Source: a virus (Duplodnaviria > Heunggongvirae > Uroviricota > Caudoviricetes). From it: a DNA stretch of 4,011 nt. The translations under genes were made by a program, and so were the position numbers. Shown piece by piece: positions 1-4,011 of this stretch. The stretch lies in the IMG/VR virus record IMGVR_UViG_2713896779_000027; one strand, 5' to 3'. Position 1 is the stretch's first letter; each line of letters opens with the position of its first letter. The notes below the pieces were generated by a model. It was not told the DNA's origin, did not search any database, and saw only the letters and a program-made list of their open reading frames with translations.

Positions 1-185
1 GGCTGTTCCTGCTGAACGTTGTTATCAGCCACACGCCAGGTGTATACGCTTTTATCAACGAAGCCAGCCTTTTTCAGTTCCCACAGCTCGTTCAGTACTT
101 CTTCACGACTGATATCAAGTCGCGCAGCCAGCTCTACCGACGTGGCTTTTCCCATCGCTTTCAGTGCGTCAAAAACAGTCTCCAT
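1..185 (-). CDS. hypothetical small protein, 5' portion only (stop lies beyond the left edge); possibly winged-helix, weakly Ren-like
   Basis: ATG at 185..183 with GGGAGG (197..192) 6 nt upstream. Hand translation of the minus strand is open for 61 codons to position 1: [61 protein letters not shown]. Lies directly 3' of the P-like gene. Absent from the ORF track because the stop is outside the window. Confidence 0.55.
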
Positions 186-218
186 AAATTTCCTCCCGGT
201 AAAAAATCACTTCTCAAC

Positions 219-884
219 TCAAACAAAACCAGCCGCTTTCCGGCGTTCATATTCCTGTTTCAGCAACTCAATTGGCGTTGGCCCCGACGGGCGTTTGGGG
301 GCCGCCAGTTGTCGCCGGACTGGCGGAACGCTCAGGCCGTTACTAACATGCTTTGCCCATTTCGTCAGTTGCCGTTCTGCAAGCCGTTTTAATTCCCCTT
401 CGGTCATCTGGCGCTCAATCCCCTTTGAACGCATCTCGAGGCAAATGTGATACAGCACAGGCTGAGACCACGGGTACTTATCACTTCCGTCGTATCGCCA
501 GGACTCATTGCGCCAGCGGCGGTACTCCTCCATCACAGCATCCACCGTCAGACCGAATGGATTGGCTCCGCTTTTCGAAATCAGTGCCACAAACTCAGCC
601 AGGTCCGGAGGCCATGTTTCACCCGCCCGGCAGCGGTCCATGCACTGGCGGCAGACCTGCCGGATTTGCTGCTCAGTCATCGCGCCAATCTGTGCAATCC
701 AGAGCTTCGAAGGTGCGGCCCCGTTCTTCTGGGTCCAGCGGTTCGAATAAACCACCCCCATGAGTTCCCACAGCTTCCAGGCCGTTTCCGTCGCTGATAA
801 ATCCGTTTTCACGTTCCCACTGCTCACGTGCTGCCCGAATTTCCTGAACTGCCCGTGATGCGGTGCCACCTGGTGCTGCTGCAT
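219..884 (-). CDS. lambda P-like replication protein (helicase loader)
   Basis: 221-aa ORF. The C-terminal ~150 aa (from MTEQQIRQV...PDLAEFVALISK... through ...KYPWSQPVLYHICLEMR...ELKRLAERQL... to the end) aligns by eye with lambda P as I remember it (...GQFVAWCREEA...SYPWKSNAHYWLVTNLY...ELRRKAADEL...). AAGGGG sits 5 nt upstream of the ATG at 884. The start is uncertain: from 884 the gene overlaps the upstream O-like ORF by 212 nt; alternative in-frame ATGs are at 761 and 680, the latter giving an ATGACTGA start/stop junction with the O-like stop. Confidence 0.8.
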   Translation of the reverse strand: MQQHQVAPHHGQFRKFGQHVSSGNVKTDLSATETAWKLWELMGVVYSNRWTQKNGAAPSKLWIAQIGAMTEQQIRQVCRQCMDRCRAGETWPPDLAEFVALISKSGANPFGLTVDAVMEEYRRWRNESWRYDGSDKYPWSQPVLYHICLEMRSKGIERQMTEGELKRLAERQLTKWAKHVSNGLSVPPVRRQLAAPKRPSGPTPIELLKQEYERRKAAGFV

Positions 885-1713
885 GGTTTACCCCTTTGCT
901 GACTGGTTTAACCTGCGCCCTGACGTGATTTACGTGACGGGCGAATTTCTGCTCCCACTGAATCTGCGTAAACACTTTCCCCTCCGCTGCCCAGTAGTCC
1001 CGGAAGGCGGCAAGTTCAGCAGGTGTAAATTCTGTCTCCGGCAAAGCCATCCCCCACAACGCAGCCCGTCGTCGAAAATCCCGTGACGGATACCAGCTAT
1101 CGCTCATCGGGAATTTTCCGATGGGTTCGCTCAGGCCATACAGGAATACAGGGGGGGCTGCCTGTAACGACAAAACTTCCTGCTCACTGGTCGGAGCACT
1201 CTCGCGTGCGTTATGTGTGGGGTTTAGATCTTTGGGTTCCTTTGGGTTCCGTGATCCGTTTTTGGGTGTCTTTGATGGAAAATTTGGGTGTCTTTGGTTA
1301 TTTTCCATGCAGCTAAGAGTTCTGTTTTTGGGTCTGTTTTGTGCTGAAACATAACCATTTTCGGTACTGTTTTTATTAACAGCACCAATTTTACCCACCT
1401 TTAAAGACTCCCGTTTTTGGGTGTATTCAGGCTCGGCAACACTTTCTTCTACACCGATAAGTCGGTACACCACAATTTGCTTTGTTCTGCCTTTTCTCTC
1501 ACCGGTATCAACAATTAACCCAATCTCCATCAGGTGTCGTAAGCTGTCCTGCACAGTCTTTTTGTTCAGTTCCGTTACTTCTGCCAGTGCAGATACAGAC
1601 GGGTATGCACACAAATCGGCACCGCACATATCAGCAAGCCAGGTCAATACTGACTTACTGGATGAACTGCCGGTTTTCACCTTTTTAGCCCATCGTAGTG
1701 CATCGATACTCAT
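673..1713 (-). CDS. phage replication initiation protein, O-like in function (N-terminal HTH domain, iteron-bearing linker, C-terminal domain)
   Basis: Long minus-strand ORF (track: 673..1788). N-terminal region (...SVLTWLADMCGADLCAYPSVSALAEVTELNKKTVQDSLRHLMEIGLIVD...) matches the winged-HTH pattern of phage replication initiators. A Pro/Lys-rich linker (TPKNGSRNPKEPKDLNP) is encoded by the repeat array. Lies between the cII-position gene and the P-like gene. Start placed at the internal ATG 1713..1711 (MSIDALRW...), which has AGGGG 7 nt upstream and overlaps the upstream gene by only 29 nt; the 1788 start would overlap it by 104 nt. Confidence 0.8.
   Translation of the reverse strand: MSIDALRWAKKVKTGSSSSKSVLTWLADMCGADLCAYPSVSALAEVTELNKKTVQDSLRHLMEIGLIVDTGERKGRTKQIVVYRLIGVEESVAEPEYTQKRESLKVGKIGAVNKNSTENGYVSAQNRPKNRTLSCMENNQRHPNFPSKTPKNGSRNPKEPKDLNPTHNARESAPTSEQEVLSLQAAPPVFLYGLSEPIGKFPMSDSWYPSRDFRRRAALWGMALPETEFTPAELAAFRDYWAAEGKVFTQIQWEQKFARHVNHVRAQVKPVSKGVNHAAAPGGTASRAVQEIRAAREQWERENGFISDGNGLEAVGTHGGGLFEPLDPEERGRTFEALDCTDWRDD
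1231..1428. repeat. iteron-like direct repeats inside the O-like gene (candidate prophage replication origin)
   Basis: Six copies of a TTTGGGT core, starting at 1231, 1241, 1261, 1283, 1327 and 1416. Includes a perfect 10-bp tandem TTTGGGTTCC x2 (1231-1250) and a perfect 14-bp direct repeat TTTGGGTGTCTTTG (1261-1274 and 1283-1296). Spacings of 10, 20, 22, 44 and 89 bp are close to multiples of the helical repeat. An AT-richer stretch lies between 1340 and 1410. Lambda ori is likewise an iteron array within the O coding sequence. Confidence 0.6.
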
Positions 1714-2236
1714 ACGAACCCCTGGCAGACATTTGTTTATCTGCAAAGTAATATTGGTATTGCTGACGATACGCGTGCTTGAAAGCAATAGCTTTTTCTA
1801 TAAGCTCGTCAGTCTCACGTTCCACAACAACTGGATCCGCAAAAAGCAGCCCGGACTCCACCACATCGCCATATTCTTTGTTTAACCCGGCGATCATGTA
1901 CGTAATGCTTTTTCCGTCAGTAATTTCACAATACAATCTGAAATCGCTGATCCGGATAGCCTCCATAATTGCCGGAATCTGCGCCGTGAATTTGTCACGC
2001 TTATCTCTGGTGTCGATAGCTTTCCAGCGTTCGAATATCTTCACCCGGTTAACGCCCAGCGCCCGTTGATCAACCTCGCCATCATTAAACGTGACGCGTT
2101 GAACATCGATGTTCGGGCGTTCTTTCAGAGCCCAGAATGCTTCCGTGATTAATATCGTCGCCTGCTCCTGTGTCATTCCTGGTCGGCATACCCAGGTATC
2201 CAGAGCCTCACAAACCTGTTCAGTGGTGATTTTCAT
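1685..2236 (-). CDS. hypothetical early-operon protein in the cII position (possibly YdaT-like CII analogue)
   Basis: 183-aa ORF immediately downstream of the Cro-like gene (17-nt overlap) and upstream of the O-like gene. Translation looks protein-like with no low-complexity runs. The only start support is a weak GGGG about 10 nt upstream of the ATG at 2236. Function is assigned from position only; the family call is a tentative recollection. Confidence 0.6.
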   Translation of the reverse strand: MKITTEQVCEALDTWVCRPGMTQEQATILITEAFWALKERPNIDVQRVTFNDGEVDQRALGVNRVKIFERWKAIDTRDKRDKFTAQIPAIMEAIRISDFRLYCEITDGKSITYMIAGLNKEYGDVVESGLLFADPVVVERETDELIEKAIAFKHAYRQQYQYYFADKQMSARGSYEYRCTTMG

Positions 2237-2447
2237 TGTTCAACCGCCCCGCCCGCTTTGCCTTACGATATTCGTCATAAACTTTGGGGTCGTACTGAAG
2301 TTCCCCGCCGGATGCCTCTTGCAGGCGCATCGCGCGACCTTCAGGAACCAGTTCCCCCCATGCAGCAACGCTTGCCAGCCTAACTCCTGCGACATTGGCA
2401 AGCTTTGTTTTGCTGCCAAAAAACGCTATAGCATCAATTTTCAACAT
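2220..2447 (-). CDS. Cro-like transcriptional regulator (P22-Cro/DicC type)
   Basis: 75-aa ORF divergent from the repressor gene. The motif ...IDAIAFFGSKTKLANVAGVRLASVAAWGELVPEGRAMRLQEASGGELQY... matches the P22 Cro pattern (...VIDHFG...AVAKALGIS..AVSQW.EVIPEKDAYRLEIVTAGALKY...). AAGGGG sits 7 nt upstream of the ATG at 2447. A TTGACT/TAGTTT promoter with interleaved operators lies upstream. Confidence 0.85.
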   Translation of the reverse strand: MLKIDAIAFFGSKTKLANVAGVRLASVAAWGELVPEGRAMRLQEASGGELQYDPKVYDEYRKAKRAGRLNNENHH

Positions 2448-2457
2448 ATCGAACCCC

Positions 2458-2522
2458 TTAGATTTTCCTAAGAAAACTAGATCGTAGAGAAACCTAAGTC
2501 AAGAAAAATTAGAATTACCTAA
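2458..2522. promoter_or_regulatory. OR-like operator region: three TTAG-N6-CTAA palindromic sites between divergent repressor and cro genes
   Basis: Site 1 at 2458-2471 is TTAGattttcCTAA, site 2 at 2484-2497 is GTAGagaaacCTAA (reverse complement TTAGgtttctCTAC), site 3 at 2509-2522 is TTAGaattacCTAA. Centre-to-centre spacing is 26 and 25 bp. The sites interleave with both promoters' -35/-10 elements, as OR1-3 do in lambda. Confidence 0.6.
2474..2502 (-). promoter_or_regulatory. PR-like sigma70 promoter for the cro-like operon
   Basis: On the minus strand, -35 TTGACT (2502..2497), a 17-nt spacer and -10 TAGTTT (2479..2474). Operator site 2 fills the spacer and site 1 lies just downstream of the -10. 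A candidate divergent PRM-like -10 TAGAAT (2510-2515, plus strand) sits inside site 3 and would give a leaderless or near-leaderless repressor mRNA (ATG at 2524). Confidence 0.5.
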
Positions 2523-2523
2523 T

Positions 2524-2931
2524 ATGAAAAACGAAACCTTCGGTGCTCGCCTCTTATACAGGCGAAAAAAATTAAAACTGTCTCAGGCCGCATTAGGTAA
2601 GCTGGTCAAAGTGGCTCACGTAACAATTTCTCAATGGGAAAGAGATGAAACACAGCCAGCGGGGAAGAGATTATTCGCACTGAGCCAGGCGCTTCAGTGC
2701 TCGCCGACTTGGCTTCTTTTTGGAGATGAAGATAAGCAACCAGGCGAACCGATCCCAGATAATCAGCCAGTCAATCTGACAGAAGATCAAAAAGAGTTGC
2801 TTCAACTGTTCGACGCACTGCCTGAGTCAGAGCAAAAGGCTCTGTTGTCAGAGATGCGTGCTCGAGTTGAGAATTTCAACAAACTTTTTGAAGAACTACT
2901 CAAAGCTCGCAAAAGAAGCGCAAATAAATAA
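2524..2931 (+). CDS. dicA: DicA-like HTH (XRE-family) prophage repressor, CI functional analogue without an S24 peptidase domain
   Basis: 135-aa ORF. N-terminal HTH (...LSQAALGKLVKVAHVTISQWERDETQP...) and a C-terminal segment (...LFALSQALQCSPTWLLFGDEDKQP...LPESEQ...EMRARVENFNKLFEELLKARKR...) closely resemble E. coli Qin DicA as I recall it (...LFALSKVLQCSPTWILFGDEDKQP...LPESEQ...EMRARVKNFNKLFEELLKARQR...). Divergent from the Cro-like gene and flanked by operator clusters. The symbol denotes a homologue, not necessarily the K-12 Qin locus. Confidence 0.9.
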   Translation: MKNETFGARLLYRRKKLKLSQAALGKLVKVAHVTISQWERDETQPAGKRLFALSQALQCSPTWLLFGDEDKQPGEPIPDNQPVNLTEDQKELLQLFDALPESEQKALLSEMRARVENFNKLFEELLKARKRSANK

Positions 2932-3006
2932 CCCCCCTTTTTTTCGCAACTCTCTGTAATAAAAAGCACAAACTTTCAAATACTTGTGTTTTTTACATCA
3001 AGAAGC

Positions 3007-3059
3007 TTAGGTTTTTCTACACAAAAAGCTTGACCATAACTCTTAGGTTATTCTAAATT
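3007..3059 (+). promoter_or_regulatory. OL-like operator pair with candidate PL-like promoter downstream of the repressor gene
   Basis: Site at 3007-3020 is TTAGgtttttCTAC; with its 5' C (3006-3020, CTTAGGTTTTTCTAC) it matches the reverse complement of OR site 2 at 14 of 15 positions. Site at 3043-3056 is TTAGgttattCTAA. Between them is TTGACC (3030-3035), with TAAATT (3054-3059) as a weak -10 at 18-nt spacing overlapping the second site. Orientation is inverted relative to the OR sites, as OL is to OR in lambda. Confidence 0.5.
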
Positions 3060-3138
3060 CTACTCATCAAGACACCGCACGGTGTTCTCAGCAAACAGTT
3101 CCGCTACCCGGCGTTAAGGGGAAGCAGAGGATTTCTCA

Positions 3139-3290
3139 GTGGGCGAAGTCAAACATCAGAATGGAAGGCGTCCAGGGATCAGCAAAGAAACAGCGATGGC
3201 GCTTTATATTGATATCAGCGCCATTGCCGGACAGGTAAGAGTTATCAGAGCGGTAACTAAGCGGTATGCGCCTTTACTTCAGAAAGTCTC
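3139..3290 (+). CDS. hypothetical protein, N-terminal fragment interrupted by assembly gap
   Basis: GTG at 3139 with GAGGA (3127-3131) 7 nt upstream. Frame is open for 50 codons up to the N-run (VGEVKHQNGRRPGISKETAMALYIDISAIAGQVRVIRAVTKRYAPLLQKV). Contains AGG/AGA codons, typical of phage accessory genes. First ORF downstream of the candidate PL-like promoter. No recognisable family, so it may not be a real gene. Confidence 0.35.
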
Positions 3291-3340
3291 NNNNNNNNNN
3301 NNNNNNNNNNNNNNNNNNNNNNNNNNNNNNNNNNNNNNNN
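3291..3340. other. run of 50 N: assembly gap or masked sequence
   Basis: Fifty consecutive n characters, directly visible. True length and content are unknown, and the two flanks may not be contiguous. Confidence 0.99.
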
Positions 3341-3432
3341 ACCAATTTCCTCTCGAGTAACAGACCCCTCAGAGGATACCACCTCGCCTGACGTGGTTAA
3401 AAAGCAGGCAACGCTAACCACAAGGAGCCGAC

Positions 3433-3651
3433 ATGCAGAAACGAGACCCCGTCATCATCGCGCCAGACTATACCGATGATGAACTTTATGAGTGGATGCA
3501 CCAGAAAATTAAGGCGGTGCAGGACCTGAAATGGGCCAATGAAGCCAGGGCTAAGCAGGCTGAAAATCTGTCCGCTCTGGAGCAGGATATCACCAATCTG
3601 GAAAAAGCAGCGGCATTAAGCATTGCCAGAATGATTACATACCTGAGGTAG
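3433..3651 (+). CDS. hypothetical 72-aa protein, probably 3'-truncated by the IS insertion
   Basis: ATG at 3433 with AAGGAG (3422-3427) 5 nt upstream. Translation MQKRDPVIIAPDYTDDELYEWMHQKIKAVQDLKWANEARAKQAENLSALEQDITNLEKAAALSIARMITYLR is helical/coiled-coil-like. The stop (3649-3651) falls within the first bases of the inferred IS left end. No family recognised. Confidence 0.6.
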   Translation: MQKRDPVIIAPDYTDDELYEWMHQKIKAVQDLKWANEARAKQAENLSALEQDITNLEKAAALSIARMITYLR

Positions 3652-4011
3652 CCTGAGTTTAACGGACACTCCTTCCTGAAATAGAATGGCATCAGAAGGA
3701 GCTAATAATGAGCAGAAAAACCCAACGTTACTCTAAAGAGTTCAAAGCCGAAGCTGTCAGAACGGTTCTTGAAAATCAACTTTCGATCAGTGAAGGCGCT
3801 TCCCGATTATCTCTTCCTGAAGGCACTTTAGGACAATGGGTTACCGCCGCCAGAAAAGGGCTCGGTACTCCTGGTTCCCGCACGGTGGCTGAACTGGAAT
3901 CTGAAATTCTGCAACTGCGTAAGGCGTTAAATGAAGCTCGCCTTGAGCGAGATATATTAAAAAAAGCAACAGCGTATTTTGCACAGGAGTCGCTGAAAAA
4001 TACGCGTTAAT
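3644..4011 (+). mobile_element. IS3-family insertion sequence, left end and orfA (element continues beyond the right edge)
   Basis: orfA-type transposase gene with the characteristic HTH N-terminus and leucine-zipper C-terminus, followed by an A7 run (3959-3965) typical of the IS3-family -1 frameshift site. The -1 frame stays open to the window end. Left terminus inferred at TGAGGTAGCC... (3644), with GGACAC at 3664-3669, by analogy with IS3-family inverted repeats that begin with TG. The boundary could instead be at the TGAG at 3654. Confidence 0.7.
3708..4010 (+). CDS. IS3-family transposase OrfA (IS600/IS911-like architecture)
   Basis: 100-aa ORF MSRKTQRYSKEFKAEAVRTVLENQLSISEGASRLSLPEGTLGQWV...LESEILQLRKALNEARLERDILKKATAYFAQESLKNTR. 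Same layout and C-terminal ...ILKKATA...SLN..R motif as IS911 OrfA from memory. AAGGAG (3695-3700) 7 nt upstream of the ATG. Slippery A-run just before the stop. Confidence 0.9.
   Translation: MSRKTQRYSKEFKAEAVRTVLENQLSISEGASRLSLPEGTLGQWVTAARKGLGTPGSRTVAELESEILQLRKALNEARLERDILKKATAYFAQESLKNTR

Follow-up and report, generated by a model that had tools for sequence, protein, structure and literature searches.

The array of direct repeats inside the initiator gene of this lambdoid prophage probably consists of binding sites (iterons) for the initiator that is encoded around them, and as such would mark the replication origin of the prophage module. This interpretation comes from comparison of sequences and predicted structures in and around the window, the whole 4,011-base stretch of DNA that was analysed. 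An iteron array and probable origin in the linker-coding part of the initiator gene was also the original prediction, and it gains support from the array in 60 of 73 homologs, from 121 core copies in the genes versus 6 in their flanks, from copies in several reading frames and from the helicase or loader gene next door. The design with repeats inside the initiator gene is already known from phage lambda; for this protein family there was no earlier description of it.

Repeat array in the window

TTTGGGT is found exactly six times in the window (at 1231, 1241, 1261, 1283, 1327 and 1416), always on the plus strand, whereas dinucleotide-preserving shuffles averaged 0.69 copies and never had more than 4, with six or more in 0 of 200. 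The six repeats with this core that had been reported were thereby confirmed as exact copies on one strand between 1231 and 1422. The same holds for the perfect 10-bp tandem, TTTGGGTTCC twice at 1231-1250, for which the repeat finder TRF gave a tandem at 1230-1250 with 100% match, and for the perfect 14-bp direct repeat, TTTGGGTGTCTTTG at 1261-1274 and 1283-1296. A seventh, weaker copy, CCATTTTCGG at 1355-1364, had been overlooked. The repeats all lie in the minus-strand ORF 673-1713, in codons 98-161 and within the stretch that AlphaFold2 leaves disordered, in agreement with their assignment to the linker-coding part of the gene, and the peptide NPKEPKDLNP had been quoted correctly. The array and its sites, from the 5' side of the gene onwards, are:

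1231..1432, minus strand (iterons read on the coding strand): whole repeat array, probable origin core, from repeat search, shuffles, TRF and weight matrix
1411..1421, minus strand: full iteron 1, CCCAAAAACGG on the coding strand and CCGTTTTTGGG on the plus strand, with AA upstream; 29.3 bits; frame 0, peptide TQKR
1355..1364, minus strand: weak iteron 2, CCGAAAATGG on the coding strand; 14.2 bits; peptide TENG
1322..1332, minus strand: iteron 3, CCCAAAAACAG on the coding strand; 22.2 bits; peptide RPKN
1277..1296, minus strand: variant site, CAAAGACACCCAAATTTTCC on the coding strand; contains one copy of the 14-bp repeat; peptide HPNFP
1256..1274, minus strand: full iteron 5, CAAAGACACCCAAAAACGG on the coding strand; 27.9 bits; frame 2, peptide TPKNG
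1231..1250, minus strand: perfect 10-bp tandem, GGAACCCAAA twice on the coding strand, closing the array; peptides NPK and EPK, in different frames

The six TTTGGGT copies are of mixed kinds: one is the variant site, two make up the terminal 10-bp tandem and three match the family iteron of about 20 bp, and that only these three of the six fit it well speaks against the origin reading. The family weight matrix had just four positive matches in the window, all in the array and in one orientation, with a best score elsewhere of -4.1 bits. The sites are unevenly spaced, at 10-57 bp. The signal for their proposed helical-turn spacing is weak, the seven sites giving R = 0.76 at an 11-bp period (p ~0.04), and phasing was rejected as a family-defining feature, none being present across the family. 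Folding of the array as single-stranded DNA was mildly better than in shuffles (z = -2.5) and was given no weight.

Variation among strains touches several of the sites. Iteron 2 regains its consensus, CCGAAAACGG, through an A-to-G change at 1357 in strains OkiPb01715 and WL1467, and in these two and 2012C-4502 a T-to-C change at 1323 turns iteron 3 into CCCAAAAACGG. The variant site has a left arm identical to that of iteron 5 and a different right arm; sites of its type (CCCAAATTTCC and CCGTTTTTCCC) also occur in 6 and 10 homolog loci, respectively, in several frames. In homologs a tandem GAACC or 'EPxxEP' element closes the arrays on their 3' side and corresponds to the 10-bp tandem, of which one copy is precisely deleted in strain 2013C_3277. 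Deletion variants of 10 bp and 22 bp exist in other strains (2013C_3277 and USDA5905), and both are frameshifts that break the initiator gene.

The same repeat in homologous genes

The comparison covered 80 homologs in gamma-, beta- and alpha-proteobacteria; 73 distinct genes were used in the test of array position. An alignment of 17 sequences gave no sufficiently conserved stretch, and a version with 10 sequences was usable. The matching region of the homologs carries 4-8 copies of a repeat of about 20 bp, AAnnnnCC(C/G)AAAACGG on the coding strand. Comparison with related prophages, which had been proposed as a check, found the array at the corresponding place: a 10-mer present at least four times within gene nt 241-560 was seen in 60 of the 73 distinct homologs and in none of the control regions of equal length (0/73 upstream, 0/67 downstream). 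The core CC[AG]AAAACGG occurs 121 times on the coding strand of the genes (68.7 kb) and 0 times antisense, compared with 6 times on both strands of 348 kb of flanking DNA, and AA at 7-6 nt 5' of the core is kept in 98-99% of the sites. Neighbouring copies are most often 17-18 or 21-26 bp apart. The motif is kept in genes of 39% to 61% A+T and is conserved from Enterobacteriaceae to Sphingomonas, in a position that is constant with respect to the winged helix. The family is also found in phages, among them phiV10-like phages, Bcep176, Acinetobacter phages AB1/AP22, Vibrio H20-like phages and Edwardsiella phages.

Copies in more than one reading frame were present in 19 of the 24 genes with at least three core copies (in locus L055 seven copies take frames 0,1,2,1,0,1,0), and the same repeat DNA is read as different peptides, TQKR, PKNG or PKT. 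The copies in the window occupy three frames. Protein-preserving synonymous codon shuffling gave six ACCCAAA in 0 of 5000 trials (maximum 5, reached twice), and synonymous recoding with uniform codon choice gave at most 4. Because copies lie in several frames and recoding never gives six, the repeat is a DNA signal and not a peptide repeat. Since the sites fall where the disordered linker is encoded, this signal largely dictates the Pro/Lys/Asn/Gly/Gln-rich sequence of the linker, and not the reverse.

It is very improbable that the repeats are a mere by-product of a low-complexity P-K/E-N-G linker, made by slippage and kept for flexibility without a function at the DNA level. Such an origin would suit the P-K or P-N encoded by five of the six window copies, the family in which PxNG is the commonest frame and 41 of 76 neighbour spacings are divisible by 3, and the 10-bp and 22-bp deletions, by which slippage is seen to happen here. 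It does not suit the three frames in the window and the multiple frames in most family genes with their unrelated peptides, the shuffles that never reach six copies, the 10-mer that is kept at very different GC or the flanking positions that are conserved in a non-coding-like manner, and the frame analysis has already largely refuted it. A function of the motif in mRNA, for example in translational autoregulation or in slowing of the ribosome in the linker, has a minimal probability, even though every one of the 121 cores is on the coding strand, with no antisense copy. Strict coding-strand orientation alone cannot separate a DNA signal from an RNA signal, and a one-sided orientation is to be expected in any case, since the reversed motif would encode Phe/Leu/Trp-rich peptides in the disordered linker. 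The Rfam search of the window gave no match, the motif is A-rich and unstructured, and arrays of 17-24-bp repeats in the same orientation beside a helicase-loader gene are a classic signature of an origin.

Initiator protein

The gene that carries the array and the domains of its product are:

673..1713, minus strand: initiator gene, 346 aa, RefSeq WP_000020556.1, from Pfam, PDB match and AF2 model
1444-1713, minus strand: winged helix, aa 1-90, from the AF2 model and fold matches
1144-1443, minus strand: disordered linker, aa 91-190, AlphaFold2 pLDDT <52
904-1134, minus strand: DnaT-like ssDNA-binding domain, aa 194-270, followed by the C-terminal tail; Pfam DnaT 9e-17, 61 bits

The DnaT C-terminal domain in the PDB was matched at 1.7e-19, with aa 194-270 corresponding to DnaT residues 82-157. 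Homologs are named DnaT (primosomal protein I) in several records; this identity was rejected because the C-terminal domain alone matches, the N-terminus being a winged helix. HTH_36 scored 20.9 bits on the window initiator, below the cutoff of 25, and exceeded it in the tested homologs L006, L016 and L055. The protein had also been called O-like, which is justified by its position and role alone: a test for homology to lambda O did not show any, as there was no PF04492 match at E<=0.01 (lambda O itself scores 5.7e-36) and profile comparison with lambda O by hhalign reached 12.8% probability over 52 columns. The wing of the N-terminal domain contains the peptide DTGERKGxT. Its invariance in loci L003-L082 is partly ascertainment because it served as the search pattern for them, and the usable evidence is that it is near-invariant in alignment A1, which was collected independently.

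Gene neighbourhood and mosaic junction

The initiator gene lies among early genes of lambdoid type:

219..680, minus strand: lambda-P-like helicase-loader gene, 153 aa (RefSeq), WP_000139485.1 'replication protein P'; PF06992 9.5e-17
1685-2236, minus strand: YdaT-like gene in the cII position; PF06254 YdaT 21.2 bits
2220-2447, minus strand: Cro-like gene; PF14549 P22_Cro 3.2e-13
1229..1233, no strand: mosaic junction, with the N-terminal module and the array above 1233 and, below 1229, the DnaT-like and P modules that it has in common with Rac-type prophages

The loader gene overlaps the stop codon of the initiator gene. The Cro-like and YdaT-like genes are the upstream early genes of the same rightward-type operon, and their transcription would cross the array; a promoter and terminator scan of the window did no better than chance and found no promoter of this operon. 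The gene after the initiator is lambda-P-like in the window and in loci L004, L006, L009 and L060, and elsewhere it encodes a DnaB helicase (L055), a primase-helicase (L023) or a DnaC/IstB-like protein (L074).

In Megablast the match to Rac-SA53 and to many E. coli prophages breaks off at query position 630-634, and the protein alignment with Rac-SA53 YdaU begins at aa 161. The N-terminal module and the array are exchanged as one mosaic unit, with the homology break at 1229-1233. That the repeats are chiefly recombination substrates, boundary sequences through which prophages exchange initiator modules, is nevertheless highly unlikely. The break with Rac-type prophages exactly at the edge of the array and the precise deletions between repeats in other strains are what such a role would leave behind; however, the junction is at one edge of the array only, both deletion variants shift the frame and break the gene, and local recombination cannot explain a motif shared from Enterobacteriaceae to Sphingomonas at a fixed place relative to the winged helix.

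The replication module had been described as intact. This is true of the two ORFs, initiator and loader, which are 100% identical to their counterparts in E. coli O121 RM8352, but prophages of this type (PPompW) have been reported as defective overall (PMC8112680), so in its current setting the origin may never fire.

Candidate unwinding region and proposed initiation

Within the array lies one further feature:

1280..1400, no strand: AT-richest part of the gene, candidate DNA-unwinding region; GC 36%

Elsewhere in the initiator gene GC is 55-60% in the 3' half and 41-50% further 5', and the AT-richest 40 nt are gene nt 305-344, with 70% AT. A GC minimum inside the array is in keeping with an origin; on the other side, the stretch is modest, at 62-70% AT, and forms no discrete block. 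Across the family there is a GC dip at gene nt 451-510, 3' of the arrays, that is absent from the window, and in many homologs the AT-richest segment is 3' of the array and not inside it. Sites resembling DnaA boxes (TTWTNCACA, at most one mismatch) numbered 12 against 8.0 expected, which is not significant, and two one-mismatch sites are in the array; DnaA boxes accompany many iteron origins, though not all of them, and their lack of enrichment counts against the origin reading.

It is also conceivable, but unlikely, that the repeats bind the initiator chiefly for regulation (by titration or handcuffing, by autoregulating the transcription that passes through the gene, or by excluding related phages), with the origin elsewhere. 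Conservation at the DNA level suits any role as a binding site, no strongly AT-rich block stands beside the window array whereas many homologs have a dip 3' of theirs, and plasmid iterons are generally known to act in initiation and control alike (PMC3832669). On the other hand, one iteron set usually serves control and initiation together, the array is placed like the lambda ori within O, and the 4-kb early region beyond the array has no second repeat cluster and no other match to the weight matrix.

If the array is the origin, initiation could proceed as follows. Upon derepression, transcription from the cro-side promoter would lead to synthesis of the initiator and the P-like loader. The winged helix of the initiator would then bind the direct repeats of about 20 bp (AAnnnnCC(C/G)AAAACGG, coding strand), building a nucleoprotein complex over about 200 bp, and the AT-rich stretch at 1280-1400 would melt. 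The DnaT-like C-terminal domain may hold the melted single strand, and the C-terminal part of the initiator would presumably recruit the P-like protein together with host DnaB.

Comparison with known systems

The claim that iterons are encoded in the linker as in lambda O agrees, as regards layout, with the annotated lambda record. In both cases direct repeats lie inside the initiator gene directly 3' of the part encoding the DNA-binding winged helix: lambda has four iterons at O codons 117-145 (O nt 349-433), after PF04492 at aa 22-115, and the window has its array at codons 98-161 (gene nt 292-484), behind a winged helix that takes up aa 1-90. In both, a P-family loader gene follows directly, the module is downstream of cro and a gene in the cII position, and the N-terminal domain and the repeats move together as a mosaic unit. 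The window initiator differs in not being a PF04492 protein and in having a DnaT-like ssDNA-binding domain as its C-terminal part. Lambda iterons are internally symmetric, with inverted half-sites, whereas the window repeat is asymmetric with an A-tract core; by inspection, CCCAAAAACGG is not self-complementary and only the outer CC..GG is symmetric. Moreover, the window sites are of several kinds and unevenly spaced, and the AT-rich stretch is within the array instead of 3' of it.

A close parallel is found in DopC/DopE, chromosomal domesticated genes of Cellvibrionales and Oceanospirillales for which no iteron-like sequences or origin were found (Brezellec et al. 2017, PMC5509034). They combine an HTH_36 N-terminus with a DnaT motif at the C-terminus, and a protein of the lambda-P family comes next (PMC5509034); that this architecture is kept without iterons counts against the origin reading. 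Unlike the window genes, which are in an E. coli prophage and have the array, DopC/DopE are in genomes lacking dnaC and dciA. As the pair is domesticated and iteron-free and the window module is prophage-borne with an array, the latter looks like the phage-borne state ancestral to such pairs, an iteron-bearing phage counterpart to them.

Iteron plasmids with an HTH_36 or winged-helix Rep (for example Paracoccus pAES7, pMARC3 and pMOS2; the RepA/RepE/Pi class) likewise have same-orientation repeats of about 17-24 bp that are presumed initiator sites, accompanied by AT-rich DNA, for which the window has a candidate stretch, and their DNA-binding domain too is a winged helix. Their iterons are in non-coding DNA upstream of rep, in contrast to the window repeats, which are overprinted on the coding sequence of the initiator itself, and the partner in the window is a phage helicase loader. 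Rac-SA53 YdaU/YdaV has an initiator whose C-terminal 186 aa, covering the DnaT-like domain and tail, are 87% identical and the same P-like gene next to it, but YdaU has a DUF1376 N-terminal domain and another linker without TTTGGGT or CCCAAAAACGG repeats. An active origin, oriJ, has been reported for Rac (PMC3945230). Literature on ydaU, oriJ and primosomal protein with iterons gave no mapped origin, the position of oriJ included, and no description of iterons for the family; searches for the repeat strings returned primers and unrelated sequences only, a paper on the replication region of Stx phages ('Eru') does not mention iterons, DnaT or origins, and no binding or origin-activity experiment on any family member was found in the literature.

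Implications and distribution

A broader interpretation, which we put forward tentatively as a possibility, is that these genes represent a widespread, uncharacterised family of phage and prophage replicons with one origin signature: an HTH_36 winged helix with various C-terminal modules and an iteron of about 20 bp whose near-universal core, CC(C/G)AAAACGG, lies in all three frames of the linker. Domestication, as seen in DopC, would then be marked by iteron loss. If it is the DTGERKGxT wing motif that reads the core, capture of the melted strand would fall to the DnaT-like domain, and the initiators of unrelated prophages residing in the same cell could fire or titrate each other's origins. 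The general picture of lambdoid phage replication is unchanged by these results. The prediction of an origin extends to a large initiator family now annotated as 'primosomal protein', 'helix-turn-helix protein' or 'hypothetical', and the family consensus could be used for annotating origins, for predicting cross-talk and incompatibility between co-resident prophages and for new phage-derived replicons. In addition, the linker is a clean natural case in which a DNA signal determines how a disordered stretch of protein reads. At least 80% of the array region is held by 904 of 5426 complete E. coli genomes, among them O157, O121, O111, O145 and O55 strains, so that a concrete origin can be predicted for a replication module present in about one in six of these genomes.

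Probable iterons within the initiator gene

The window is the immunity and replication (early) region of an Escherichia coli lambdoid prophage. On the minus strand the genes follow in the order P22-Cro-like, YdaT-like, initiator and lambda-P-like.

Genes of the early region
2220-2447, minus strand, P22-Cro-like gene
1685-2236, minus strand, YdaT-like gene in the cII position
673-1713, minus strand, initiator gene (346 aa)
219-680, minus strand, lambda-P-like gene (RefSeq annotation)
2524-2931, plus strand, divergent cI-like HTH_3 repressor gene

The best explanation for the repeat array in the initiator gene is that the repeats are putative initiator-binding iterons marking a predicted origin, which we consider probable. 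The lambda-type design with the origin inside the initiator gene is already known and is met here in another initiator family, whose repeat core is conserved across Proteobacteria. The finding is useful and tidy, and will be no surprise to a specialist in phage replication.

TTTGGGT occurs six times, only on the plus strand (at 1231, 1241, 1261, 1283, 1327 and 1416) and nowhere else in the window, and dinucleotide shuffles gave a mean of 0.69 copies and never attained six. The six copies claimed in the original prediction are thus present, as are its perfect 10-bp tandem (1231-1250), its perfect 14-bp direct repeat (1261-1274 and 1283-1296) and the encoded peptide NPKEPKDLNP.

Conservation of the repeats in homologous genes

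Homologs of the N-terminal 160 aa of the initiator reach down to about 35-40% identity, and PxNG, TQKR/QKRN and FP motifs recur in every linker of their alignment. Scanning a single genome for each species gave 80 homologous loci from gamma-, beta- and alpha-proteobacteria. In 60 of the 73 distinct genes some 10-mer (at most one mismatch) had four or more copies between gene nt 241 and 560, and this was seen in none of the equal-length control regions (0/73 upstream, 0/67 downstream). The coding-strand core CC(C/G)AAAACGG is found in enteric, Edwardsiella, Plesiomonas, Proteus/Providencia, Arsenophonus and many betaproteobacterial genes, and the core in Acinetobacter genes is AGTCCCAACAAtGG. 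The 10-mer CC[AG]AAAACGG had 121 coding-strand copies in the 80 genes (68.7 kb), no copies on their antisense strand and a total of 6 copies in the flanks (348 kb), both strands counted. When these 121 core sites were aligned to define the repeat unit, the sequence around the core was also conserved, with AA 7-6 nt upstream in 98-99% of the sites, which makes the unit some 20 bp long, AAnnnnCC(C/G)AAAACGG(g)A. Neighbour spacings in the family cluster at 17-18 and 21-26 bp. In the window the proposed helical-turn spacing is weak, with R = 0.76 at an 11-bp period and p about 0.04, and in the family it is absent.

A weight matrix made from the 121 sites scored above zero at only four window positions, all on the minus strand and within the array; the best score outside them was -4.1.

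Matches to the family weight matrix
1411-1420, minus strand, core of a 29.3-bit match
1256-1265, minus strand, core of a 27.9-bit match
1322-1331, minus strand, core of a 22.2-bit match
1355-1364, minus strand, core of a 14.2-bit match, absent from the original list

The window thus additionally holds one weak candidate iteron that had not been listed. Other E. coli strains differ by single bases at 1357 and 1323, and with these changes both weaker sites match the family consensus. The copy at 1283 and the iteron at 1256-1274 have the same left arm, the 14-bp repeat; the right arm of the 1283 copy is distinct (CCCAAATTTTCC). Variant sites CCCAAATTTCC and CCGTTTTTCCC occur in 6 and 10 homologous loci, respectively, in several reading frames. 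In relatives a GAACC tandem ('EPxxEP') closes the arrays on their 3' side, and the 10-bp tandem is its counterpart. Real as the six copies are, they are not all alike: three are full iterons, one is a variant site and the rest make up the terminal tandem.

Many homologs have, at gene nt ~340-480, tandem sites besides the main iteron; their left arm is that of the main iteron, and their right arm is either a T-tract or an AT palindrome (aAAgAgtCCCGTTTTTCCC, CCCAAATTTCCC; CCCCAAATTTGGGG in locus L044). These are spaced by 21-22 bp and lie in several reading frames.

DNA signal versus peptide repeat

Repeats in a coding sequence could also reflect a repeated peptide; here it is the DNA that is conserved and not the peptide. 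Read on the coding strand, as ACCCAAA, the six copies are in frames 0, 2, 1, 2, 1 and 2 and encode TQK, RPK, HPN, TPK, NPK and EPK. When synonymous codons were permuted with the protein kept, six copies arose in 0 of 5000 trials (the maximum, five, twice), and recoding with uniform codon choice gave at most 4. As recoding never gives six copies, the DNA is more repetitive than the protein demands. The copies lie in more than one frame in 19 of the 24 genes with at least three core copies, and 35 of the 76 spacings between neighbouring core copies are not multiples of three. In Aromatoleum (L055) a unit of ~17 nt is present seven times in frames 0, 1, 2, 1, 0, 1 and 0, read as PKT, ENG and RKRN. 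ACC-CAA-AAA-CGG gives TQKR and, shifted by one base, PKNG, and the motif is kept in genes from 39% to 61% A+T.

Other origin features

Within the array, at 1280-1400, the GC content drops to 36%; the 3' half of the initiator gene has 55-60%, and the AT-richest 40 nt have 70% A+T. In the family the mean GC is lowered by 8.4 +/- 1.0 points immediately 3' of the arrays (gene nt 451-510), and this order, array and then dip, is lambda-like. The window departs from it, as its gene nt 451-510 is the DnaT-module junction and is not AT-rich. DnaA boxes were not enriched in the window.

The initiator and known systems

In an AlphaFold2 model from a 42-sequence alignment, aa 1-90 form a confident winged helix (pLDDT >90), aa 91-190 are disordered (pLDDT <52) and the C-terminal domain is folded. 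All repeat copies lie in codons 98-161, in agreement with their predicted location in the linker-coding part. The winged helix is generic, with fold matches to ArsR/MarR-type regulators, TubR and a plasmid Rep-DNA complex; HTH_36 is below cutoff in the window's initiator and above it in the tested homologs L006, L016 and L055. Residues 194-270 match the DnaT ssDNA-binding C-terminal domain (PF17948, 9e-17; PDB 6aep and 4ou6, 1e-18 to 1e-19). Phage records label homologs 'replication initiation protein' or 'primosomal protein'. A lambda-P-like gene lies downstream in the window and four relatives; elsewhere the gene at this place is a DnaB helicase (L055), a primase-helicase (L023) or a DnaC/IstB-like loader (L074), the usual mosaic of phage replication modules.

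In the annotated lambda record the PF04492 DNA-binding domain of O (aa 22-115) is followed at once by four iterons, at gene nt 349-433 (codons 117-145), and the O gene by P; the window shows the same topology. The description of the gene as O-like holds for this topology. That the protein belongs to the lambda O family is not supported: PF04492 gave no match, and profile comparison gave 12.8% probability, with the recognition helix and wing alone aligning. The closest described proteins are DopC/DopE, in which HTH_36 and a DnaT C-terminal motif are followed by a P-like protein (PMC5509034), the same architecture as in the window's pair. That study interpreted them as lambdoid genes that have been domesticated and did not find iterons in them (PMC5509034). 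The window looks like their phage-borne, iteron-bearing counterpart. Our literature search found no description of iterons or an origin for this initiator family, an absence that is no proof as most subscription journals were outside its coverage.

Mosaicism, spread and decay

In phage Rac-SA53 and hundreds of other E. coli prophages the DNA match is limited to the initiator 3' half and the P-like gene, and these matches end at window 1229-1233, the array edge. The Rac-SA53 YdaU protein is 87% identical from aa 161 onward and differs in its DUF1376 N-terminal domain and in a linker without the window's repeats. The DNA-binding domain and the repeats therefore move together, as would be expected of an initiator and its sites. 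The Rac-SA53 linker (L002, 3140-3331) has other short repeats (ATCTGTATCTGTATC; GTTCAAACACC / GTTTGAACACC / TTGAACAG), which might be binding sites of the Rac-type initiator.

The array region is found in about 900 of 5426 complete E. coli genomes, in 734 at >=99% identity. The window matches E. coli O121 RM8352 at 100% identity over 1-3290 and 3341-3643, and over 600-1800 it shares 99.8% identity with the 'PPompW' prophages of O145:H28 strains. Both replication ORFs (initiator and P-like) are intact in the window. PPompW prophages are described as defective, owing to IS insertions and to deletions, with early regions that are comparatively well preserved (PMC8112680), and the late region of RM8352 is visibly degraded; 'intact module' is therefore fair, and a functional prophage is not implied.

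In some lineages the initiator gene has decayed. Exactly one 10-bp tandem unit (aligned to window 1231-1240) is deleted in strain 2013C_3277 and exactly one 22-bp repeat unit (1261-1282) in O55:H7 USDA5905, each deletion frameshifting the initiator gene into two annotated pieces, which shows repeat-mediated deletion and decay. The gene is annotated as split also in strain 95JB1, with point changes adjoining the first iteron (1423-1424, TGT to TTC). In several deposited phage genomes, among them Vibrio anguillarum H20-like phages, the homologous initiator is annotated as two genes, a 'helix-turn-helix domain containing protein' and a 'DNA/RNA-binding protein', suggesting frameshifts within the repeat region or gene-calling trouble caused by it.

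Other observations

A seven-G run inside the initiator gene (1151-1157; C on the coding strand, Pro-Pro) has point differences and constant length in six other E. coli strains. The 50 N at 3291-3340 replace 185 bp found in otherwise identical RM8352 (L001, 8692-8876) and are an assembly gap or masked stretch with no biology. Identity with RM8352 stops at 3643, and 3644-4011 carries an IS3-family transposase orfA (HTH_Tnp_1, 3708-4010), an insertion peculiar to the window's strain and directly after a small ORF (3433-3651). Operator-like repeats matching CTTAGGTTnTTCTA lie at 2457-2523 and 3006-3055 (9 matches at <=3 mismatches versus 1.07 expected). Three sites are between the cro-like and cI-like genes, that at 2457-2472 being palindromic, and two exact sites, which overlap a 23-bp tandem (2988-3031), lie on the downstream side of the cI-like gene. 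The arrangement resembles an OR of three and an OL of two sites for the cI-like repressor.
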